A DNA stretch of 41,081 nucleotides from a virus. Its lineage: Duplodnaviria > Heunggongvirae > Uroviricota > Caudoviricetes. Below are positions 2,349 to 35,537 of this stretch, one piece after another. The notes beneath the pieces were generated by a model. It saw only the letters and a list, made by a program, of their open reading frames with translations, was not told the origin of the DNA and made no database searches. The stretch lies in IMG/VR virus record IMGVR_UViG_646206259_000005; one strand, 5' to 3'. Made by a program: the position numbers and the translations under genes. Within the stretch, counting starts at the first letter, position 1. Each line of letters starts with the position of its first letter.

Positions 2349-5297
2349 TTAGTGCTTCCCTTCTATTAAGTCTAACCTAGCTTTTATTCTTTCTATTTCT
2401 CTGCGCTGCCATGCCGCCTCGATATAGAATAAGAGATCAGGTCTGACCCCCCATCTAGATCCTGCTGGCGTTATTTCAACGCGCTCAATGATGTCTTCCA
2501 TTACCATCACTGGATTATCATCCTCATCAACAATGATGCTCCCGTCATTATCAGTCAGCGGCATTTCCCTTTGGCCAGTAATGACGTCATCATATACTGC
2601 GGGATAATCGTCATAGCAAAGAAACGCATAGCGGCATGTTGTGCTTTCTTCTTCCATGAGTCCGTGAGAAATAAGAACATCACGAAGTTGCTGCGCGATT
2701 ACACCATGATGTATCCTCGCCCCTTCTTCCCCCTTTATAGCGACAGCGTTCAGCCATTTATAAGCGATATACCTGACGTCACCCCAGGCATCCAGCAATG
2801 CTTCGTCAGGAGAGACCGGCTCTGTCTTTAATGTTCCGTCACTGGTAACCACAGGATTGGAGCCAAGATAAACTGTCGAGAACCTGTTTCCCGGACCACC
2901 AAGAGCATTTACATTATCAAGATAAGGTTTAACATCTCCGTTCTCAAAAAGATGTTCGAGTGCGTTATATACCGCGCGACGTGGAGTACTGCTTCCGGAA
3001 CCATGCAACGTTATCATTGCACCATCTGCTGAAGACGTTGTTTCACCGCCGCTAACGATTAATCTCTGAGCGGTAACATCATCAGACGGTACTTTCTTCG
3101 CAATAATGGCGTAATTACCCTCAAGTTTGACTTCCGCGCGAACTTGTCCTGATGTACCTGCATGGACAGTCAGTGACTGGACGGCAACATCATCTGTGAA
3201 ATCAACGGGTACAGGAACCGTCCTCACGCCTGACGTCGACATAAAAGTAGGAAGCGTTCTGTTAGGAGTGGCTCCGTAGACAAAATCCCTTGAAACAAAT
3301 TCTTCCTGTTTAATTTTCACCCTGAAACAATACAAATCAGCCGGGTGACCATCGTGAACATAAGGATATTTTCTGTTGTTATCCCCTATGCTCCATGGGT
3401 TTAGAAAGTCTTCCCCACCGAAAATGTAGTACAGCCAGTTGTCTTTGATACAAACTGAACCAACACCAACCGCAGAGTTAACTATTCCGCCCTGATAAAT
3501 CTGATCAGTAACATTAACCCACTCTACATTATCCAGACTCCACTCATTGACGTTAACTCTGGTCATAAATGTTCTTGGATAGTTTCCTGCATAACGGTTA
3601 TCAGGTTCTCCTCCTTCCCACTCACCAAATGCGCGCTCACTGCCAAAAATAATCAGCTCATCGCCAACTTTGGCAAAAGGAAGGTTTGAGTGATGAACAT
3701 TATTTGGGAAGCGAAGAGAATTCCATGATGTACCTAAATCAGAGCTTCTGTGCAATGAACTACCGGGTTGAGTACTTAATGTCCCCCTGGTCGTCAGATA
3801 CAGAATGCCATCATAATATTTTACACATGGCTCAGATGCATTCGCCTCATATTCTGCAGGTATGCGTCTGCGAACAAAGCTACCAGGAGAACCGAAAGCA
3901 TCAGAGAAATAGAGTATCCCAAGCTCGCGTGGACCAATATCACCATTATGGTAGCCAACAGCAAAACTGTTATCGCTAATCGTCGCAAAACTGTGAATCT
4001 CAGTAACAGGAGTGCTTCCGTCAACAAAAGAAGGAATAGTTCCAAGACTGGTTTTTCTCCATGGTGACGAGTGAAATGATGTACCAAAACTCCAGTATCT
4101 ACCCTCGTTATTCTGATCCACATCCTGGGTATTTTGCGTCGTAACTGTAAAAGTATTTTTATCAATAACAGTAGTCACCGTCATATTCCCGGTAACACCT
4201 GTAACACCAGAGTTTGAGAAGTTGACAAAATCACCAGCAAATAATCCGTGATCAGTAATGCGAATATAAGCGACTTGCTGATTTGCTGCTTTCGTTATAC
4301 CACCATAAGCGCGAAGGCTGCGACTCATTGGGCGATCCCACAACTCTGCAACCTGCAGTTTATTTCCGCTCACGGTCCGCGTCTCAATTACAGCAAAAAG
4401 GCGATTTCTGACAACCCCCATACTCATGCAGTGATAGTTAACTGTGGGATAGTTTTCATGTAAATCTGTAAGCCATTCCGGCGTTGTCCAGGTCCTCCCG
4501 TCATCTCCTGAGCGAACCCATGCAACATGGAGGTTATTTACACCATGGCGGTCTCCAGCCATAAAAGGCGCATAGATGACATTGTCATATACAAACGTTT
4601 TATCCTGCGTCCAGGCGTTGTACCACGGTGTATCTGTAATTTTAAATAACTCTCCCTGGATAAAATCTTCAGAAGCATAAAAAAGAGGCTGACCCGGTAT
4701 TCTCTCAAATAAAAAACGAGCATTTTTAAATCGACTGACATCTGGAAGAGTTGATACTTTAAAAGTAAGCCCTCGCCCATCTATCTTTTCACCACCTGTT
4801 GCAACAGAAAGTAATTCTGATAGAGCTGATGTATCATCATGAACACCATCACCAATAGCCCCCCAACCTCTTACATCATAACTGTCTCTCCATCTTGCTA
4901 TCTGAAGTTTTGGGTATTTATTCGCTCCATCTGGGTCTTCTAATTGCTGCCGTAACTGATCAGGATCATACTTCAGCACATTCGGAAAATAGAACTGCTG
5001 CACACCATATGCATCATAAACAGCCATAGAATGGCCCTGTACAGTAACGAATTTGGCAATCTGTCCGTTATATACCGGATATCCAGCAGCGTTAATGATG
5101 ATTGGTTGCGAAACAGGAACGTGAGAACCGTCTTCATTCTCCACATAAACCTGAATCTGGTTTTCAGGATTTACTGGGTCAGTGTCAATTTTACCGATAT
5201 AAATCTTTCCATTAGCTACGGCTTTAAAAGAACGAGCCATAGTGAAGAGTTGCGAAGGCATGCTTACCACAACATTGGCATTTATTGAATCTGTCAT
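2349..5297 (-). CDS. Tailspike: P22 gp9-like head-binding domain + sialidase/endosialidase-type catalytic domain + C-terminal intramolecular chaperone domain
   Basis: N-terminus [12 protein letters not shown]...[22 protein letters not shown] closely matches P22 tailspike N-terminus; Asp-box motifs SGDDGRTW and SSDLGTSW; C-terminal region typical of self-cleaving chaperone domains of endosialidases. Confidence 0.85.
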
Positions 5298-5355
5298 TTA
5301 ATTTGCTCCAGATACAAGGAATCACCGAAGCATGGCTACGATGAATTTTGGGCAT

Positions 5356-5379
5356 AAAAAAACCCAGCCGAAGCTGGGT
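5356..5379 (-). terminator. Rho-independent terminator between ant and tailspike
   Basis: Hairpin ACCCAGC-cgaa-GCTGGGT with 7-nt A run on + strand (U run on minus-strand transcript). Confidence 0.6.
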
Positions 5380-5397
5380 TGTCGCGTTGGTTATCTG

Positions 5398-6327
5398 TCA
5401 GTAGTTATGTACTGAAGGAGGTAATTCTTTATTCTTAAGTCTCATCCATGCGGAAAGATTCGTTGGTCCGTCTGGCTCATTGATATCAACATCTCGTGTG
5501 TGGTTTATTAAAACGTCTCTTGCCATTCCGATAACATACGAGAACTCATGGCCATAGTCGTAGCATCTGCCGGAATAGTTCGATTGAATTTGTTTTAGCG
5601 CCGGATACAGTTCGCGGAATAATGCCTGTGCGCGGTTGGCATAATCCCATAACCATACAAGGCTGTTTGCTTCTTTTGCAGAAAGCTCGTTTGCTTTCTT
5701 CTCTTGTTTGCCGATTAACTCGCCTTCAAGCGGAACGCGAGCTGCAAGTGACAGAGCTTCGGTAAACTGCTCATCGCTGATTTCTTTGTATGAACATCCA
5801 AAATGGGATTTCAGTGACGACCACATGGTGATCATCGCCTTAGCCTGTTTTTCCTTTGGCAGAGACTGACCGCGACTCATGACGAGTTGTTTAATGGCTT
5901 CCTGCTGTTCAGTGGTGATTTTACCCGGCAACGCCTTTTTAGCTTTGCGTGGGTTAACTACATGGCCTTTAGTCCAGTATTCGTAGAGCACATCGTCACA
6001 CTCTTCCTGATACTGGATTACCTTGTCGCGGATTTCAGGGCGGACTTTGTTAGGGCTAATGGTTTGCAGCCAACCTGCAAGTTTGCGAAGTGCCAAACAA
6101 ATAATCTCACGGCGCTGTTCATCACTAGGAAGCTGCATTGTGATTTTCACAATGGAGGTTTTAAACCGCTGCTTCATTTTCGTAAACTGTGAAGCCCAAT
6201 CCATACCCATGCCTTCAACGATAGGTTTCATTGGGGTATACGGTTCGCCGTTGTGATTGACAACATAAAGCTCTGCGCCGTGGAATGGTACATTGATAGT
6301 AGATACTGCTGTTGCTATACTTTTCAT
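5398..6327 (-). CDS. ant: Antirepressor Ant (immI region)
   Basis: 309 aa, position immediately downstream of arc and divergent from mnt as in P22 immI; N-terminal AntA/BRO-like character. Confidence 0.75.
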   Translation of the reverse strand: MKSIATAVSTINVPFHGAELYVVNHNGEPYTPMKPIVEGMGMDWASQFTKMKQRFKTSIVKITMQLPSDEQRREIICLALRKLAGWLQTISPNKVRPEIRDKVIQYQEECDDVLYEYWTKGHVVNPRKAKKALPGKITTEQQEAIKQLVMSRGQSLPKEKQAKAMITMWSSLKSHFGCSYKEISDEQFTEALSLAARVPLEGELIGKQEKKANELSAKEANSLVWLWDYANRAQALFRELYPALKQIQSNYSGRCYDYGHEFSYVIGMARDVLINHTRDVDINEPDGPTNLSAWMRLKNKELPPSVHNY

Positions 6328-6560
6328 GTCGTTAATTCCTATGCGTGGTTTTACGATACCGAAGCCCTGACTGTTCCCGCAGTTGGGGCTTCACTGTTTT
6401 GATTTCTTTGCCGCATCAAGCATCACTTCTGAAAACGTGCGCTTGCCACTGAATACTCTTTCTCTTCTCAATTTTTCGTTCGTGCCAAATGATTCGCCAT
6501 GAACAAAATTTGGTCTTAAAATGGTAATCGCAATCTCTTTGACTACTGCATCCAAGCGAA

Positions 6561-6713
6561 TCACACCGTTACCCCCTCTCTCTTCAGGCTGTCTATCAGG
6601 CGCTTGATAACCTCTGAGTTAAACGACCTGCACTCTTCCTTTGCCCTGCTACCGATAGCATCCTTTAACGACTGCGGCATCCTTACCAAAATCTTACTTA
6701 TTTCTTTCTCCAT
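6561..6713 (-). CDS. arc: Arc-like ribbon-helix-helix repressor (start at internal Met MEKEI with GGAGGG RBS)
   Basis: Motif RSFNSEVIKRL resembles P22 Arc RSVNSEIYQRV; sits between ant and divergent mnt. Confidence 0.7.
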   Translation of the reverse strand: MEKEISKILVRMPQSLKDAIGSRAKEECRSFNSEVIKRLIDSLKREGVTV

Positions 6714-6827
6714 GTTACCCTCCACACAAACAACTCTTTTCGAATACAAAAGATAGCAAAGTGAGTATATCTAGTCAAAATTTTTTTGCATACACTTTGA
6801 TATCAAATTGAATACCAAAGGTGTGAT
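6714..6827. promoter_or_regulatory. Divergent immI promoter/operator region between arc and mnt
   Basis: 114-bp AT-rich intergenic region between divergent RHH repressor genes; by analogy with P22 Pant/Pmnt. Confidence 0.5.
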
Positions 6828-7076
6828 ATGGCAAAGGGTGTGTCAATTTCTCCAACTACGGTAAGAATCCCTGAATCTTTACGCGAGGCTCTTGCTGTCA
6901 GAGCATCAAAAAATGGTCGCTCTGTTAACTCCGAGATCGTCATGATTTTGCAAGCCGCGATTGATGAAGATAGGTCGCCAAAGTCAGTTGAGTCATTTGC
7001 TCAGCAAGAAGCTGACAAATTCAAAGAGGCGCTGCTTGAGACGCTAAAGACCATGTATGGTAAGGATGAAAAATAA
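6828..7076 (+). CDS. mnt: Mnt-like ribbon-helix-helix repressor
   Basis: 82 aa; motif NGRSVNSEIVMILQAAI resembles P22 Mnt NGRSMNSELLQIVQDAL; divergent from arc-ant. Confidence 0.8.
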   Translation: MAKGVSISPTTVRIPESLREALAVRASKNGRSVNSEIVMILQAAIDEDRSPKSVESFAQQEADKFKEALLETLKTMYGKDEK

Positions 7077-7612
7077 TGCTGCACACAATTCATTTCTTAT
7101 GCCCCGTTAACACTGCCACTGTTGGGCAACTTCAGAACCACTGTCTCACCGCATTATCTCAAGGCGCAACTGAATTAAATATCCATATATCAAGTCAGGG
7201 AGGGGAAACTGCCGCTGGCTTTACTGCGTATAACTTTCTTAAGTCACTCCCTGTTACCGTTAGAACTCACAACATAAGCAATGTTGAATCCATAGCTAAT
7301 ATCGTTTTCCTGGCTGGCTCAGAACGTTTCGCAAACCCATTATCAAGATTCCTGTTACATCCTCTATTATGGGGCTTTGCCTCCCCAGCCGCCGACCATG
7401 CCAGATTGAGAGAGTACGGGAAATGCCTCGATAACGATCTTGATCGCTTCGTTGAGACGTTCAATATCGACATCGGAACCCATATTAGGTGGGCATCCCT
7501 GATAGCAGACTCGACCATTTTGGATGCTAACAAGGCTCTTGAGCATGGCATAATTAATTCCATAAAAACTGCAAGGCTGGCATCCAATCAGGCAAACTGG
7601 TGGGTTGTTTGA
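7076..7612 (+). CDS. ClpP-family (S14-like) serine peptidase homolog, translationally coupled to mnt
   Basis: By-eye alignment to E. coli ClpP: ISSQGGETAAG...VESIANIVFLAG...FANPLSRFLLHPL parallels INSPGGVITAG...AASMGAFLLTAG...LPNSRVMIHQPL with candidate Ser/His conserved; start ATG overlaps mnt stop (TAATG). Confidence 0.6.
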   Translation: MLHTIHFLCPVNTATVGQLQNHCLTALSQGATELNIHISSQGGETAAGFTAYNFLKSLPVTVRTHNISNVESIANIVFLAGSERFANPLSRFLLHPLLWGFASPAADHARLREYGKCLDNDLDRFVETFNIDIGTHIRWASLIADSTILDANKALEHGIINSIKTARLASNQANWWVV

Positions 7613-7637
7613 TGGGTAAATCATGATTACTCCTTAT

Positions 7638-7664
7638 AAAAAACCCACCTGACGGTGGGTTTTA
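7638..7664. terminator. Bidirectional rho-independent terminator between convergent genes
   Basis: Hairpin ACCCACC-tgac-GGTGGGT flanked by A6 upstream and T4 downstream. Confidence 0.55.
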
Positions 7665-8087
7665 TTAGTGCTTGTATAGCTTGAACTCCCTGTCGAGCCA
7701 TAAGACATAAAAAGTGGCTCCTATCTTATAACCAACCATAGGTGCCTTAGAGCAAAATCTGAACGCAATGAAATCCACATCTTGAGTAACATGCTTAGGA
7801 ATCGGAGCCTTTATCGCGTTTCTGGCAATTTTTTCCGTCCCAAGCCCGTGTTTATCAGATTTTCGTATCTCATCCCATGACATCTGACTTAACCTGAACA
7901 GCCTATCTGCAAATGCTGCCTTTTCATGCTTTTGGCAGCAATCTAGGCAATACCCCTTTTGTAGGTATCTAAGAGAAAATACAGGCGGACTTTTGTCTAC
8001 ATCATGAGATTCGTGATGGATAGAGAGGCCAACAGTAGCAGAGCTCTCTTTATCCCTCTGTTTTATTCTTCCCTTAACTCTAGACAT
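7665..8087 (-). CDS. Hypothetical 140-aa protein, downstream partner of Panacea-domain gene (candidate toxin/effector)
   Basis: ORF 5 bp downstream of the DUF4065 gene on same strand; contains CLDCC cysteine cluster; no family confidently recognised. Confidence 0.5.
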   Translation of the reverse strand: MSRVKGRIKQRDKESSATVGLSIHHESHDVDKSPPVFSLRYLQKGYCLDCCQKHEKAAFADRLFRLSQMSWDEIRKSDKHGLGTEKIARNAIKAPIPKHVTQDVDFIAFRFCSKAPMVGYKIGATFYVLWLDREFKLYKH

Positions 8088-8092
8088 ACACG

Positions 8093-8542
8093 TCAGTTAA
8101 TTAACGTTTTGAAAAAACCTTTCATAGAATCAAGTGTGATTTCTTGGCTAACCGCACCCTCAATGTAAGCATCTTTCCATGGCTGCTCTTCGTGAGTCAT
8201 ATTGCGCAGTTTCCAGGCAGAAAACTGACCATAAACTTTATACACCTCATCCAGCAATTCAATTTCATCTTCACTGAATTTTTTAGCGTCAAAGTTTTCT
8301 GGCGCAGGTAAAGCTCCGTTACCACAGTCCCTATATTTACGATACAATTCAGGAACTACTGGCCCATGCATCCAGGCTTCAATTTTCTCATTAAATAGCG
8401 GCTTACCCAGAAGAACCAGAGAAAACCCTTGGGCATAATACGTCAACTTCTGAATTTTTAGGTTAGAGATAATGTCGCCACTTTCTTCATCGCAATGCGC
8501 CAAGAAGTAGTCGGCGACATCAAAACAAGTGAGCATAAACAT
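8093..8542 (-). CDS. Panacea (DUF4065, GepA/SocA-like) domain protein
   Basis: N-terminal pattern DVADYFL...GDIISNLKIQKLTYYAQGFSLVLLGKPLFNEKIEAWMHGPVVPELYRKYRDCG matches my recollection of the DUF4065 phage-associated protein family. Confidence 0.65.
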   Translation of the reverse strand: MFMLTCFDVADYFLAHCDEESGDIISNLKIQKLTYYAQGFSLVLLGKPLFNEKIEAWMHGPVVPELYRKYRDCGNGALPAPENFDAKKFSEDEIELLDEVYKVYGQFSAWKLRNMTHEEQPWKDAYIEGAVSQEITLDSMKGFFKTLIN

Positions 8543-8910
8543 ACCTCCATCTTGATAGCCGCAGCTATGTATACAACTGTGTCAAGTTGCATTTAATACC
8601 ATAACAAAGCTGTCATCAATCCTTCAGAGGCTAACTTACAACCACTTTCTCGACACGTTTAAATCATTACGTTTCACATTTACTGCATTTTCGCCGAAGT
8701 TACCTATAAGGTAATGTCACATTTCCTGCAAGTTTCATGCAATGTTGAAAAGTGAGCTATTCACTTTTCTATGACACCAAACACCAAAAATAGCACTTTT
8801 TGCTAAATCATTCGTCCAGGTTGTGGATGGTTTGTCGTTGACACGTTTTCACACACCACTCCACCAATAAAGTATCATCTGGTATCCTGAGCAAAACTAA
8901 GGAGGTTGGT

Positions 8911-9300
8911 GTGAGGCAATTTCTTGCTGCTATGTTCTTATTCATATCTTTTGGGGCTACAGCAGAGTGCTGGGTAGTTGGAGATATGCGCGGAATAAGC
9001 TATTCAGAACGAAATAATTTCCAACCAGAAGAAGATGGTTTTAGTGGAACATTCATCATTAAGACAAGCGGTGAAGATGCCAGCATCACATATTCTGGGG
9101 CAGATGCGGGCGGCATGGCTTACAAAGCATTGTCTAAAAACTCCATCATAGGAATCGGCGCAAATGGCGAAACTCAACGCGTTATCGACTCATGGGTAAT
9201 ACATCCTACTGGAACAGTTTTAATGTCAAAAACCATTTCCGGTTATGGAAATATGGATTCAACCAAAGCTTTTGTTGGAAAAGTAAAAAGAAAATGTTAA
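8911..9300 (+). CDS. Secreted/periplasmic hypothetical protein (signal peptide), GTG start
   Basis: N-terminus MRQFLAAMFLFISFGATA-EC typical Sec signal peptide; RBS AAGGAGG 6 nt upstream of GTG. Confidence 0.6.
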   Translation: MRQFLAAMFLFISFGATAECWVVGDMRGISYSERNNFQPEEDGFSGTFIIKTSGEDASITYSGADAGGMAYKALSKNSIIGIGANGETQRVIDSWVIHPTGTVLMSKTISGYGNMDSTKAFVGKVKRKC

Positions 9301-9324
9301 CGATTGAATCCAATTACCCATACG

Positions 9325-11154
9325 TTACTGCTGTGTTGCCTCAGTAGCAAACAGCGGTCTGATGGCATTCGCAGCATTATTCAGCGCTCTTTCATAAGCT
9401 GGCGTTCCAGCTTTAGTGTTTGCCAGACGTAAGAGCGCATTCCTTGTTGCTTTGGACTCATACAGGCGCATCATTGTACCGAAACCAGATTCAAGCGCCA
9501 GTGTTGCCCCAAGAGTCGCAGTTGCGCCAATCGTCCTTATCCTGTTGGCTTGCGATTGCCCTGTCTGAGTTACAACATTTGCGATGTCTGACCTTGCTGT
9601 TTGCTGTAGAACTTCATGAAGAGCATCAAGCTCTTTCATGTGTCTCCCACTGAATATCGTGTTATATATCTGACCGTCAGATTGCGACTTCAACTTATTT
9701 AACTCGGTAAGAAATTTTGTTGGCGAGTCTCCTGCCTTTTCTGCAATCTTGCTAATATAAGCAGCACGCATAGCGTTCTTTCCATCTTCACTAAGAGCAG
9801 GCCATATCCTCTTAATATCTGATGGTTTTCTGCTGAATACAACGCTGTTTATTAGCTCTGGAGTAAACTCTTTTTTAGCTTTGTTGAGATTGTTCGCAAT
9901 CCTTTTATTGAGAACCTTATTGAAGACGTTGGAGTAGTCAGAGTTTGCTTTGACGTATCTGGCAGCCTCTCCAGCCCCCAAATACCGTGCTGCGTTATTC
10001 CTCAAATCTGAACCCATTGCCCTCTCCACGGCATCAGTTGCGGCTTTCGCGCTATTAGGAAAAACCATGGCATCTCCCTGAATACTTTCCCTTAATGCTG
10101 ACCGCAACTCTCTCAATAGTCCAAAATCTACATCTGGTTTAGCAAGCTCTTCTCGCAAATCGGATAGCCCGCGAATCAAATCCTTATTTGCCACTTTCCC
10201 AAGCCTGTTAGCCCTGGTAAGCACGTTGTCGATAACCTTAATGGATTTTGATGTGTCAACAGGTGTATCTCCCATTTTAGTTGTAATGTCTTCAATAACG
10301 CTTCCAGCTGAATCCTTCCTTGACTTCAGAGAACCATACAGATCGTCAACAACAACTGATGGGCTATATTCACCATATTTCTCAAGCTGTTTTTTAACTA
10401 GCTGACTTCTTTTTGCATATTGCTCCGCACGCTTTGAACCTGTCCCGAGCAAAGCCCCCTCGGCATCCTGAGTAAGGCCGCGAGTGAAAGCATTTTTCGG
10501 CGGGATAACATCAGATGTCATTGGTGTCACGCCCATCGATTCTGATGTGGCAATTTTCTTCGCCACTTCTGGCGCAATATCACCTTTTATAGCCGTTATT
10601 CCACGCCCTATTCCCTTTGCTGCTGCGGAAAGAACCCCCTGAGCGGCAAGGTTAACTCCGGCATTTTTTGCTGCATTTTGTGCGAAATCGCCTTTCTGAT
10701 TTGCGGCCTCTGCCAGTGATCCAATAGCCATGCTTCCTGCCGTTCCAACTCCTGGAACTAAATACCCGCCAATTGTTTCTCCAGTTTGCGCATAAGGGTC
10801 TGTCGGTCGATCGACTGGACGATAGACATCATCCAATACTTTTGGACCACCAAGCCCCTGACTGATTGCATTAATCAGACTTGCGCCACCCTGCAATACG
10901 TCAAATGGTATGTTTACCAGACCACGACCAGCCTGTTCTGCAATTTGCCCTGCACTTTGACCACCTGTGAGCCAATCGCCAGCTTGTTGCATCAATGATG
11001 GTTCTTCCCGTGTTGGTGCATTATTGGCCTGATTAACTGTTTGTTGCTGAACAGCCTGACCAGCAAAATACTCATCAATGGCGGCCCCAATATCTTCGGT
11101 GCTCGTACCATCAGGAAAGGTAAATGTCTTACCGTTTGCAGTTACTTTCATCAT
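9325..11154 (-). CDS. Ejection (injection) protein, P22 gp16-like
   Basis: 609 aa, same length and position as P22 gp16 at end of the ejection-protein block. Confidence 0.8.
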
Positions 11155-12566
11155 TCCACCGTAAATTGAATGCCTGATTTTGAGGTATATGATCCAACCT
11201 GATTCCGTGGTTCTCCTGAAGGTGTCGAATCTTGTGCTGGCGCTGCGTCAGTATTCATTGACATATACCGCTTAACGGCACTCCCCAGTGATTCACCTTT
11301 TTTAACATCCAACCCCAATATCTGACCGCCATTACGCGATTGTCCAGGGTTGCCATTCGCGCTCATCCACTCGGCTTTAAACTCATTAAACTGCGCGTTT
11401 CGTCGCTCAAGGTTTGCCATTGCATCAAGCCATCTTGCGACCGTCTCAGGGTTATCCATGTCAGTTGGCGCACCCTGTCGAACGATCTCAACGTCTTTAT
11501 CCGTTGCTGGGCCGGGAGGTAGGAATTTAAGAACCTGACTGTTAACAAGGGCATTTTGGCGGATGCGCAAATCACGCAATGTCGTATCGCTTCCGGTAAG
11601 TTTTGCGAACATGTTCTGTGCGTTACCGAACAAACCTGTCGTTGGTTTTTCTGCTCTGAACTGTTGAGCAAGCGCACTCATAGAATTGGCTGAGTTTGAT
11701 GATGCTGTGGCATTGTTTACAGCCGTCTCGATGCCTTTTTCCATGTTTACTGACAGCTTAGGTGCTTCACTAATCAACTGCTGAGCCTTTTCCTGCGCTT
11801 GCTGCATCTTAAACCCGAACTCTTGCTGATCCAGAGCCAAGCGTTGTGCTGCGATATTGTGCCCAGTCATTGCTGACTGATAGGAAAGGTTTTGCCCTCT
11901 CGCCTGAAGTGCTTCTCCAGCCTGATTGCTGCGGATTGTCTCTGCCAGTTTGCCTCGGTCAATTTCACGACCAGCCATCTTGTCCTGAACAGCAAACGCC
12001 TTTTCTGGTCCAAGCGCACCGAGAGACATAGTAGTCAGCATGTGTGATAGCTGCTCTGGATTCTGGATACCTGTCTGAATCATCCAGTCAGCATTCGCCC
12101 CCACGCGATTTAACCTGTCCTTGTTGTCAGTAATGAATTTACTGTAGGCTTCCGGTCCCTGGGAAAGAGCGACGTTAGCCCTCATGGCTAAATCGCCCAT
12201 ATCGTTGCGTTGCTGCTCATTAAGACCGGAAAACGCCTGTTGTGCCTGTGCAACAAACGCTGGATTTTCCTGGGCAAACTTAAATAGTCCAGATGGATCA
12301 CCAGAAGCCCATGCATCAGCGTGAACCTTATTGAACGCACTAATAGCTTTCTGTTGCTGTTCCTGATTGTAAATATCAGCAACTCCAGCCAGACCACGTA
12401 ACGCGGTCAGACCAATGTTATTTGCACCTGAGCGAGCCAGTTCATTGTTTTCGCGGATCAGACCAAGCGTTGCGTTAATGTCGCTTGCCTTTGGCGCATT
12501 CTCATTTTGCGTACCGATGCCAGCCAGAAAACCACCAGAATTAATACCCTGTTGCCACGTAGCCAT
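11151..12566 (-). CDS. Ejection protein, P22 gp20-like
   Basis: 471 aa; position between gp7 and gp16 equivalents. Confidence 0.8.
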
Positions 12567-32288: not shown

Positions 32289-32570
32289 TCAGGCCTCGAA
32301 GAATTCGCCGTTCTTCGGGGCTTTTTCTTTTGTCAGGTAATCGGCAAGCCGCTTAGTCAATTCAGCCATTTCATCGTCTTCGATTCCGTATTCCAGAACA
32401 GCCAGCATCATGCTTACCTGCGAGAAGAAACCATTCTTCCATCGGCTTACCTGGTATTCAGGAACCCCCATCGCGCGAGCGAATGTCTTCTGCCCCATCA
32501 GTGCCAGTTTGTTCAGCAAGGCCGACTCGATGCGAGCCGCTTTCTTGCTTTTAGTTGCAATAGTACCCAT
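32289..32570 (-). CDS. cII: CII-like transcriptional activator
   Basis: [15 protein letters not shown]...QVSRWK...MLAVLEYG closely resembles lambda CII. Confidence 0.85.
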
Positions 32571-32952: not shown

Positions 32953-33006
32953 TTACCTGTAGGTAAAAAGCAAATCAATACCCATAGGTTATTTACCGGC
33001 AGGTAA
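32953..33006. promoter_or_regulatory. OR operators: two TTACC-N4-GGTAA palindromes between cro-like gene and cI
   Basis: TTACCTGTAGGTAA (32953-32966) and TTACCGGCAGGTAA (32993-33006) read directly. Confidence 0.65.
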
Positions 33007-33025
33007 TCAAAGATAGAATTAAATC

Positions 33026-33712
33026 ATGGATAAATACGAACAAAGACGACTAAGGCTGATAGAGATAAGAGACCGATTCTGTAATGGAAAGGCCTCAGAG
33101 TTGGCTCGTCGAATAGAAAGGGAACCATCATACGTTTCCAGAATGCTGTATCCGGAAGGAAAAAGCGGAAAAAAACGCATTGCTGACGATATGATGGAAC
33201 TAATTGAAAAATCTTTTAATCTCCCACGCGGATGGATGGACATGCTTGCAGATGGTAAAGCTGGAGCTACAGACCATCTTGAGTTTGCGGGTAACGTTCG
33301 TGCGGGTTTTGTTCCGGTAATTGGTGAAGCCGTTTTGGGAGTTGATGGCTCAGTGGATATGATTGAATTCAGATCCGGTTGGTTAAGCATCTACAGCGGC
33401 GATAAAGATGCTTACGGTCTGAAGGTTAAGGGTGACAGCATGTGGCCAAGGATTCAGTCAGGAGAATATGTTGTTATTGAACCAAATACGCCAGTACATC
33501 CAGGTGATGAAGTCTTTGTAAGGACCAAAGACGGTCACAACATGATAAAGATCATGAACAAAACAAGAGACGGTGATTATCAGTTTAGTAGCATAAACAG
33601 TGATCACCGCCCAATCACTCTTCCTGTTGAAGAAGTTGATAAAATGCATTTTGTTTCAGCTATTGTGAAACACACCAGGTACGTAGACCAGGACGATCTG
33701 CCAAAAGTTTGA
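33026..33712 (+). CDS. cI: CI-type prophage repressor (HTH + LexA/S24 autocleavage domain)
   Basis: 228 aa; C-terminal GDSMWPRIQSGEYVVIEP...K S24-like motif; divergent from cro-like gene. Confidence 0.85.
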   Translation: MDKYEQRRLRLIEIRDRFCNGKASELARRIEREPSYVSRMLYPEGKSGKKRIADDMMELIEKSFNLPRGWMDMLADGKAGATDHLEFAGNVRAGFVPVIGEAVLGVDGSVDMIEFRSGWLSIYSGDKDAYGLKVKGDSMWPRIQSGEYVVIEPNTPVHPGDEVFVRTKDGHNMIKIMNKTRDGDYQFSSINSDHRPITLPVEEVDKMHFVSAIVKHTRYVDQDDLPKV

Positions 33713-34023
33713 GGATAAAGCAGCAAGTGTTTATACCCGGCATAGTAGTCGCTGTTGTAATCATCTGCTTCATATGGGCAAAGTTATCTCCTGTAAGCTC
33801 TAAGCATACAGCTGAACTCATGAAGAAGAAGCATCTTATACATGAGGCAGAATCGATAATTAAAAAGTTCAAAGGCATGTCATACGACGACATGTCATCA
33901 GAGCAGATTGCTATGTATAAATGCGCCATTGAGCGTCTTGACTACTTAAACGGACTCAAACCCAAACACACCCCAGTAGAATCAAAATTGCCGCAATGGC
34001 CAAGCAATCCAAATAGCTTCTGA
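33709..34023 (+). CDS. Small membrane protein translationally coupled to cI (lysogen-expressed cargo)
   Basis: 104 aa, N-terminal TM helix IPGIVVAVVIICFIWA; start overlaps cI stop; followed by terminator. Confidence 0.5.
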   Translation: MRIKQQVFIPGIVVAVVIICFIWAKLSPVSSKHTAELMKKKHLIHEAESIIKKFKGMSYDDMSSEQIAMYKCAIERLDYLNGLKPKHTPVESKLPQWPSNPNSF

Positions 34024-34034
34024 CATCTCCTTTC

Positions 34035-34056
34035 AGCCCGCAAAGCGGGCTTTTTT
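34035..34056 (+). terminator. Rho-independent terminator ending the cI operon
   Basis: AGCCCG-caaa-GCGGGC then TTTTTT. Confidence 0.65.
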
Positions 34057-34076
34057 ATATCAATCCAAAAAATTAA

Positions 34077-34158
34077 TTACCTGAAAATTCAAGCAGGTAA
34101 ACTCTTACATCAATTTTATTTACCTACAGGTATAGACAGCTGTTTTACCTGTAGGTAT
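34077..34158. promoter_or_regulatory. OL/PL operator-promoter region
   Basis: TTACCTACAGGTAT (34119-34132) and TTACCTGTAGGTAT (34145-34158) share the OR half-site consensus. Confidence 0.55.
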
Positions 34159-34201
34159 ATTTTAGGCCATCAGCAGGACGCACTGACCACCATGAAGGTG
34201 A

Positions 34202-34232
34202 CGCTCTTAAAAATTAAGCCCTGAAGAAGGGT
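34202..34232 (+). promoter_or_regulatory. nutL site (boxA CGCTCTTA, boxB GCCCTGAAGAAGGGT)
   Basis: Near identical to remembered lambda nutL, with one boxB stem change (C to T). Confidence 0.7.
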
Positions 34233-34430: not shown

Positions 34431-34727
34431 ATGGATGCACAAACACGCCGCCGCGAACGTCGCGCAGAGAAACAGGCTCAATGGAAAGCAGCAAATCCCC
34501 TGTTGGTTGGGGTAAGCGCAAAACCAGTTAACCGCCCTATTCTCTCGCTGAATCGCAAACCAAAATCACGAGTAGAAAGCGCACTGAATCCGATAGACCT
34601 TACAGTGCTGGCTGAATACCACGAACAGATTGAAAGCAACCTGCAACGTATTGAGCGCAAGAATCAGCGCACATGGTACAGCAAGCCNNNNNNNNNNNNN
34701 NNNNNNNACGTAGTGAAATGGGTGTGA
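34431..34727 (+). CDS. N: Antiterminator N (lambda-type), 3' end interrupted by assembly gap
   Basis: MDAQTRRRERRAEKQAQWKAANPLLVGVSAKPVNRPILSLNRKPKSRVESALNPIDLTVLAEYH... essentially lambda N; run of N bases inside ORF. Confidence 0.85.
   Translation: MDAQTRRRERRAEKQAQWKAANPLLVGVSAKPVNRPILSLNRKPKSRVESALNPIDLTVLAEYHEQIESNLQRIERKNQRTWYSKXXXXXXXXVVKWV
34688..34707. other. Assembly gap (20 N)
   Basis: Literal run of n in the sequence. Confidence 1.
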
Positions 34728-34855: not shown

Positions 34856-35056
34856 ATGACTACGACTATTGATAAAAATCAATGGTGTGGACAATTCAAG
34901 CGATGCAATGGATGCAAGCTGCAATCGGAATGCATGGTTAAGCCTGAAGAAATGTTTCCTGTAATGGAGGATGGGAAATATGTCGATAAATGGGCAATAC
35001 GAACGACGGCAATGATTGCCAGAGAACTTAGTAAACAGAATAACAAGGCTGCCTGA
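34856..35056 (+). CDS. ral: Restriction alleviation protein Ral
   Basis: 66 aa MTTTIDKNQWCGQFKRCNGCKLQSECMVKPEEMF... matches remembered lambda Ral. Confidence 0.85.
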   Translation: MTTTIDKNQWCGQFKRCNGCKLQSECMVKPEEMFPVMEDGKYVDKWAIRTTAMIARELSKQNNKAA

Positions 35057-35114: not shown

Positions 35115-35537
35115 ATGGAAGAACAAGCAAACAAGATTCTCGTAGAACTTCTGCAAAAAGCCAGTAATGGAATAGACGCGGCTGTTTCATTTAGCCAGGC
35201 ACAGATTCCTGATGTTGTTCGTCAGTTGCTAACATGGAGTTTTGTCCATAGCGCACTTTTCCAAGTGGCTGGGTTGTTGCTTTTAATTGCAGCAATGAAA
35301 CTTCCTAGTTTTGCAAGAACGGCAAGAAATAATGGCGAGAGATGGACGTCTTTAGATGGATGTCCAAACGATAGATATTTTATATCTTCGTTTTATTACG
35401 ATATATGCACTGTATTTGCTCCTATATTTGGCTCAATTATTGGCGTTTTAATTATTGCCTTCAATTTCGAATGGTTGAAGATTTGGCTTGCACCTAAGTT
35501 ATTCCTAATTGAATATGCAGCATCATTGGTTAAGTAA
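35115..35537 (+). CDS. sieB: SieB-like superinfection exclusion membrane protein
   Basis: 140 aa with two hydrophobic segments; position after ral in the PL operon as for lambda sieB. Confidence 0.55.
   Translation: MEEQANKILVELLQKASNGIDAAVSFSQAQIPDVVRQLLTWSFVHSALFQVAGLLLLIAAMKLPSFARTARNNGERWTSLDGCPNDRYFISSFYYDICTVFAPIFGSIIGVLIIAFNFEWLKIWLAPKLFLIEYAASLVK

Follow-up and report, generated by a model that had tools for sequence, protein, structure and literature searches.

We describe a small gene, orf98, that directly follows the cI repressor gene of a P22-like prophage and encodes a 98-aa member of PHROG 10450, a family with no assigned function. The gene is read from a conserved GTG, its product is predicted to be anchored in the inner membrane, and its family splits into two paralogous clades, one placed after cI where lambda carries rexAB and the other at the position that sieA occupies in P22. 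On these grounds we tentatively propose that orf98 is a prophage-expressed inner-membrane protein of superinfection exclusion, a putative assignment that we regard as quite possible but short of probable.

A P22-like prophage with an mEp043-type immunity module

The window, by which we mean the whole 41,081-nucleotide stretch of DNA analysed (IMG/VR record IMGVR_UViG_646206259_000005), is a P22-like prophage with an immunity module of the mEp043 type. The window and phage mEp043 share 99.4% identity over the immunity region, whereas the rest of the window is unlike mEp043 and contains ejection genes 16 and 20 and a tailspike head-binding domain, all of the P22 type, along with homologues of ant and mnt. 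The stretch from 2349 to 12566 holds the tailspike with its P22 head-binding domain, ant, an arc/mnt pair, and genes 16 and 20. The mosaicism of modules is clear: this is a P22-like phage and not an mEp043-like siphovirus, and the mEp043 type is limited to the immunity region. Records of mEp043 itself annotate the ORF studied here as a "hypothetical protein", with two different starts.

Genes and signals of the immunity region run in the order cro (-), cI (+), the ORF (+), a terminator, the OL-PL operators, nutL, and N (+), while cro, cII, and the replication genes are oriented opposite to cI, from three OR operators. Because this order is that of lambda, the ORF occupies the rexAB-equivalent slot, which bears out the position assigned to it in a preliminary description of this DNA. 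The repressor gene (33026..33712, + strand) encodes a 228-aa cI-type protein of the mEp043 immunity type with an S24 peptidase C-terminal domain. Overlapping an operator at 32994-33005 is a PRM-like promoter, TTTACC-16-TAGAAT (32992..33019, +), which matches at 9 of 12 positions and whose function we infer. Since its -10 hexamer, TAGAAT at 33014-33019, stops 6 nt short of the cI ATG, the cI-orf98 mRNA should be leaderless, as in lambda. A cII-type site at 32545-32558 is consistent with a PRE-like promoter.

cI and orf98 lie on the same strand, separated by 14 nt that contain no terminator, and a strong terminator stands 3' of orf98. The preliminary description had also noted this strong terminator, and a canonical intrinsic one is indeed present just beyond the ORF (AGCCCGC-AAA-GCGGGCT + T6, 34035..34058, +), where it would end the cI-orf98 transcript. 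Its hairpin (34035-34051) has a 7-bp stem with 6 G-C pairs, a 3-nt loop, and a T6 run, folds with -12.6 kcal/mol, and is kept in the E. coli alleles. The shared strand, the lack of a terminator between the two genes, the PRM-like promoter, and the cII-type site together point to cotranscription in lysogens; from the sequence, transcription of orf98 with cI is the natural expectation for a lysogen.

Beyond the terminator lies an inverted repeat, TTACCTG-N10-CAGGTAA (34077..34100, +), whose arms are operator half-sites set 10 bp wider apart than in true operators. The repeat is kept, with a variable spacer, in all of the diverged immunity modules (L015 at 5320-5343, L016 at 2765-2788, L048, and L049). 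It is followed by a T-run only in those modules that have no separate GC-rich terminator (L015, L048, and L049), and by none in the window and L016. The repeat may be an operon terminator, an unusual third OL site, or both. Next come two OL operators of the form TACC-N4-GGTA (34121-34132 and 34146-34157) together with PL (TAGACA-17-TATATT), which is annotated in mEp043; these elements span 34121..34161 (+). At 34202..34232 (+) are sequences that we take, from what is known of lambda, to be nutL (boxA CGCTCTTAA, boxB GCCCTGAAGAAGGGT), upstream of N, whose product is recognisable in the ORF translations from 34431 onwards. A run of 20 N at 34688-34707 masks part of the N gene, so its frame is not readable through. 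Downstream of N lie the Ral antirestriction gene (34856-35056) and a gene for a 140-aa protein (35115-35537) with hydrophobic, probably membrane-spanning stretches, which matched nothing in Pfam or PADLOC and is found roughly at the sieB position of lambda and P22.

orf98 is a real protein-coding gene

The + strand reading frame ending at 34023, which the preliminary description had reported, is confirmed, and we conclude that it is a real protein-coding gene. A sceptical reader could see in it a spurious ORF within a noncoding spacer that runs from cI to the terminator, since it belongs to no Pfam family and has no CDS in those RefSeq genomes of E. coli that were listed or inspected (NZ_CP021288.1, NZ_AP027212.1, and NZ_CP026399.1 among them). 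The pattern of conservation effectively refutes this. The frame is the only one open in seven orthologues that reach down to 30-40% identity, and each of the other five frames is closed by 1-13 stops, mostly at least 3. Among 13 distinct alleles from E. coli and viral contigs there is no internal stop, and the differences concentrate at third codon positions, with a pN/pS of ~0.25 for orf98 against 0.12 for cI. An ORF of 97-98 aa has also been retained in five anciently diverged modules in which the synonymous sites of cI and cro are saturated. To this are added a conserved motif pattern and an AlphaFold model with a pLDDT of 77.7. We rejected a candidate antisense gene (33660-33929, - strand), because the orthologues do not keep that frame open. 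The 98-aa gene is annotated in GenBank and phage records, and 52 of 5,426 complete E. coli genomes (~1%) carry it.

A conserved GTG start just past cI

Where the gene begins matters for what it encodes. The preliminary description had it start inside the cI stop codon, at a TTG (33709..33711, +) that overlaps the TGA. That TTG is present and in frame, but it is probably not the start. Judged by sequence comparison, the start is the GTG at 33727, 14 nt past the cI stop, so that the gene extends over 33727..34023 (+). An [A/G]TG at this position is the start codon in 7 of 7 diverged cI-linked modules, and divergent E. coli alleles have ATG in place of the GTG. A Shine-Dalgarno sequence, GAGGA (33711..33715, +), lies 11 nt ahead of the GTG, overlapping the stop codon of cI, and recurs 8-9 nt upstream of the GTG in two of the diverged modules (L015 and L049); none was found upstream of the TTG. 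All homologues, and the PHROG profile as well, begin at residue 7 of the 104-aa ORF that the TTG would open.

The same modules speak to the translational coupling to cI that the preliminary description had proposed. An in-frame upstream TTG occurs in 3 of 7, whereas the other four lack it or have it in another frame; in L016 and L048 in-frame stops lie directly 5' of the ATG, and in L048 a gap of ~55 nt follows cI. Coupling is thus not a conserved property of these loci, although with a gap of 14 nt it is possible in the window.

We consider it very unlikely that the gene product is the 104-aa protein of the preliminary description, made from TTG 33709 by termination-reinitiation; the matter concerns the start codon and is compatible with any of the functions weighed below. 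Such a form, possibly made alongside the 98-aa one, would carry the extra residues MRIKQQ and so a positive N-terminus, which would give an N-in signal-anchor or signal-peptide topology with a periplasmic domain. The in-frame TTG is invariant in the E. coli alleles, L015 has a similar in-frame TTG with basic residues, one mEp043 record annotates the TTG start, and IWA-KL is, by our own reasoning from the sequence, a candidate signal-peptidase site. Against these stand the replacement of codon 7 by ATG in divergent alleles, the placement of the Shine-Dalgarno sequence, the common N-terminus of the homologues and the profile, and the four modules with the TTG absent or out of frame.

A small protein family of temperate enterobacterial phages

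According to the preliminary description the protein resembled nothing recognisable. This holds for Pfam, NCBIfam, PADLOC, PDB, and fold searches, but not for PHROG: residues 7-104 of the 104-aa ORF match positions 1-98 of the 98-position profile of PHROG 10450 with E = 1.4e-54. The same profile is matched by the remote homologues and by ORF14 of phage N7. Scans of the ORF against Pfam and NCBIfam gave nothing above noise (Pfam at E<=1), and the RexA, RexB, and SieB families of Pfam in particular gave no match at E<=1. PADLOC-DB v2, which covers BstA and other catalogued defence systems, returned 0 families at E<=1. A sequence-profile search of the PDB retrieved only designed helical proteins at E>=0.2, and Foldseek comparison of both AlphaFold models with BFVD and the PDB found no match under E = 0.8.

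A word-indexed single-sequence protein search reached only relatives of at least 93% identity, and it took an exhaustive HMMER search to recover the family. It is small and consists of proteins of ~100 aa that are 31-43% identical, seen only in enterobacterial temperate phages; a search of species-representative genomes found one genome with the cI-linked clade. In the literature we found no paper that mentions the gene and no experimental phenotype for any family member.

Two clades in two genomic slots

The family comprises two clades, each with an invariant genomic context. In the clade to which the window's gene belongs (clade 1), the gene directly follows this type of cI in 32 of 32 IMG/VR loci, with the same layout throughout. 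The linkage is equally complete in bacterial genomes, as all 52 complete E. coli genomes with this cro-cI module carry the gene, and clade 1 is also present on two metagenome contigs. In the five diverged clade 1 modules the small protein is 34-43% identical to that of the window, compared with 83-85% for cI, and dN is ~0.5-0.6 for the small protein compared with 0.09 for cI. The small protein thus changes about six times faster than the adjacent repressor while keeping its helical-hairpin core.

Clade 2 is found in P22-like phages, with the tailspike/immI region on one side and ejection gene 16 on the other; this is so in 24 of 24 IMG/VR loci, and the same context recurs in seven metagenome or genome contigs and in phage N7. 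Reading convergently with gene 16, its gene shares the direction of mnt. P22 has sieA at this locus and in this orientation, and we call the locus the sieA slot hereafter. A search of the clade 2 loci that was confined to type-A sieA found none. In some P22-like phages the clade 2 paralogue sits downstream of mnt, in the second immunity region, yet loci without this cI, and often with neither mnt nor ant close at hand, also carry clade 2. One phage has both genes: IMGVR_UViG_2563366933_000009, a 38-kb P22-like contig (its two loci being L020 and L071), encodes one paralogue after cI and the other beside gene 16, which suggests that the two have non-redundant specificities.

Scans for promoters and terminators around the clade 2 genes were uninformative. 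In phage N7 (L009), an 11-bp perfect inverted repeat (GCTGCATGATT...AATCATGCAGC, 13-nt loop) at 4942-4976 lies just upstream of the sieA-slot paralogue and could terminate the mnt operon or serve the paralogue as an operator. The window's own sieA slot, from mnt to gene 16 (7076-9300), holds different cargo. It begins with a homologue of ClpP-like serine proteases (7076-7612, +). Then come a Panacea-domain, SocA-like antitoxin (8093-8542, -) and its 140-aa partner (7665-8087, -), which weakly matches the PADLOC model NsnC; the two look like a toxin-antitoxin or defence pair. The slot ends with a 129-aa protein (8911-9300, +) that has an apparent signal peptide, matches no family, and is encoded convergently with gene 16.

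A predicted membrane-anchored helical hairpin

The preliminary description had predicted a single N-terminal transmembrane helix, and the 98-aa form agrees with it. Residues 1-17 are hydrophobic (mean Kyte-Doolittle 2.84), and AlphaFold models a helix there. The corresponding codons (33727..33777, +) are preceded by no charge and followed by a net-positive flank, a pattern shared by 15 of 16 aligned family sequences; the remaining one has an N-terminal extension that was probably miscalled. By the positive-inside rule this charge pattern predicts an N-out/C-in topology with ~80 residues in the cytoplasm. For the 104-aa form the opposite orientation is predicted, so the topology depends on the start that is chosen. 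Inner-membrane localisation is predicted for the family from its sequences and models.

Built from the family alignment, the AlphaFold model (mean pLDDT 77.7) consists of a helix from aa 5 to 47, a loop, a second helix from aa 58 to 76, and a tail. The tail is Pro-rich, with an invariant Trp-Pro near the C-terminus. Besides this Trp-Pro, the features common to the family are a transmembrane start and the conserved residues K34, I38, E40, A41, M56, C66, A67, and L71. In our own reading, the conserved residues fall on heptad stripes of both helices, at the interface of the hairpin, while most other positions vary. A conserved scaffold with a fast-changing surface would be expected of a protein that tracks phage targets.

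Two other architectures were considered. One transmembrane segment, two helices, a Pro-rich end, and a conserved Cys recall an i-spanin, a reading that we rejected, as the ORF listing has no embedded or adjacent lipoprotein ORF, the gene belongs to the immunity region and not to the lysis genes, and its product has no positive flank at the N-terminus. We thought cleavage of a signal peptide unlikely, the n-region being without K or R and the family without a conserved A-x-A site.

A putative role in superinfection exclusion

We propose, as a putative function, that orf98 excludes superinfecting phages at the inner membrane. The protein would be made in lysogens from a PRM/PRE transcript shared with cI. 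Its N-terminal helix would anchor it in the membrane and leave the ~80-residue helical-hairpin domain in the cytoplasm, from where it would disturb the apparatus by which incoming phages deliver their DNA. The most plausible target may be the ejection-protein conduit of P22-like phages, by analogy with SieA and HK97 gp15. Taken together, the wiring of the operon, the paralogue in the sieA slot, the gp15-like architecture, the fast-changing surface, the restriction to temperate enterobacterial phages, and the location in a cI-N hotspot make an anti-phage function the best reading, and within it exclusion of DNA entry at the inner membrane appears the most likely mechanism. The interval between cI and N is a documented hotspot of prophage defence genes, for example rexAB and bstA (PMC8585504). 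The preliminary description had regarded the position after cI as a slot for exclusion or defence genes, an idea that the paralogous clade in the sieA slot strengthens.

A broader and more speculative reading extends this to the whole family. PHROG 10450 may be a new family of single-protein superinfection exclusion, two paralogous clades of which have colonised both classical exclusion slots known from lambdoid and P22-like phages, that of rex behind cI and that of sieA beside the ejection genes. Different specificities would then explain the dual copies, and the proteins would target the ejection-protein or tape-measure conduit from the cytoplasmic side of the inner membrane.

Four known systems offer points of comparison. 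HK97 gp15 is a prophage-expressed exclusion protein that takes its place in the inner membrane and, leaving the receptor untouched, keeps the genome from entering (PMC3594210). Like this moron-encoded, YebO-like protein, orf98 is small, has a transmembrane helix that starts within its first few residues and has a positive flank, is helical in its C-terminal part, and is served by a terminator of its own; unlike it, orf98 has 98 and not 62 aa, a second helix, and a Trp-Pro tail, and lies in the immunity operon instead of the tail operon. Homology to gp15 or YebO was rejected, as hhalign gave a probability of 0.5% and aligned the transmembrane segments alone. P22 SieA is a prophage-expressed protein of the inner membrane with three transmembrane segments and a cytoplasmic motif, FxRYPxEAxxFNK (PMC10883804). 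Clade 2 of the orf98 family shares its locus and orientation, on the mnt side and convergent with gene 16, but SieA has 162-164 aa and belongs to PHROG 7745, whereas orf98 has 98 aa, a single transmembrane helix, and no such motif, and belongs to PHROG 10450. Here too homology was rejected (hhalign probability 0.3%).

With lambda RexA/RexB and with BstA, orf98 shares the slot between cI and N and a presumed expression from the repressor promoter. BstA is a single protein too, though much larger than orf98. RexAB consists of two proteins, one of which, RexB, is reportedly an ion channel, and BstA localises to sites of phage DNA replication (PMC8585504). orf98, in contrast to the pair of sensor RexA and membrane protein RexB, is a single 98-aa gene whose product has one transmembrane helix, no RexA/RexB Pfam domain, and no PADLOC match. 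In Pseudomonas phage Fc02, a small ORF on the repressor transcript of the lysogen, olg1 (7.9 kDa), mediates exclusion (PMC9936078). The predicted cotranscription of orf98 with its repressor resembles that arrangement, although Fc02 belongs to an unrelated phage group and olg1 lies upstream of the repressor, orf98 downstream.

Several observations count against exclusion. The protein has no similarity in sequence or fold to any known exclusion or defence protein, and its gene is left uncalled by RefSeq's annotation pipeline. The positional arguments are circumstantial; lysogen-expressed slots also house genes unrelated to phage defence. Fast evolution could reflect weak constraint alone, and a pN/pS of 0.25 gives no sign of positive selection. 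A domain predicted to be cytoplasmic is also less obviously suited to blocking entry than a periplasmic one.

Two other functions have to be weighed against exclusion. orf98 may have nothing to do with phage defence and instead serve lysogeny or host physiology, for example by modulating, from its membrane anchor, a host protease such as FtsH (and so the stability of CII or CIII), envelope stress, or prophage induction. Its absolute linkage to one repressor lineage over a long divergence is what one would expect of a core immunity component rather than of swappable cargo, the paralogue downstream of mnt in some P22-like phages again lies in an immunity region, and the domain is predicted to be cytoplasmic. 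But clade 2 does without this cI, and frequently has no mnt or ant close by, so the family is not repressor-specific; evolution much faster than that of cI and cro would be unusual for a core regulator; and one phage keeps two diverged copies. We regard such a role as unlikely. Abortive infection appears slightly less likely still. In that case the protein would lie silent in the membrane of the lysogen, oligomerise or be activated upon infection, and depolarise or permeabilise the membrane so that the cell dies before progeny are made, in the manner of RexB, SieB, or a holin-like protein. The slot is exactly that of the abortive systems rexAB and bstA, although the sieA slot of clade 2 favours entry exclusion over abortive infection. 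The single hydrophobic helix bears a G5xxxA9 motif, which is not conserved in the family, within a continuous model helix of aa 5-47, and a neighbouring gene is weakly holin-like in one P22-like locus. There is no partner gene to act as a sensor, no RexA/RexB/SieB match in Pfam at E<=1, and one transmembrane helix joined to a structured soluble domain is unlike RexB, the reported ion channel.

Implications

orf98 is a genuine gene that had been given the wrong start. It belongs to an uncharacterised family, occupies a familiar sort of place, and probably does a familiar sort of job. That ~1% of complete E. coli genomes carry a gene that is predicted to be expressed in lysogens and that RefSeq leaves uncalled in the records inspected exposes an annotation gap for small prophage proteins. 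The distribution of the family over two slots makes the exclusion hypothesis directly testable by simple plating assays.

If the hypothesis is confirmed, a compact single-gene exclusion family would join the short list of inner-membrane blockers of DNA entry, which includes SieA, HK97 gp15, and T4 Imm. To our knowledge, the mechanisms of these three are still poorly understood. Specificity could be mapped on natural variation within the family, which includes two paralogous clades, many alleles with a variable surface on a conserved scaffold, and one phage with both copies.
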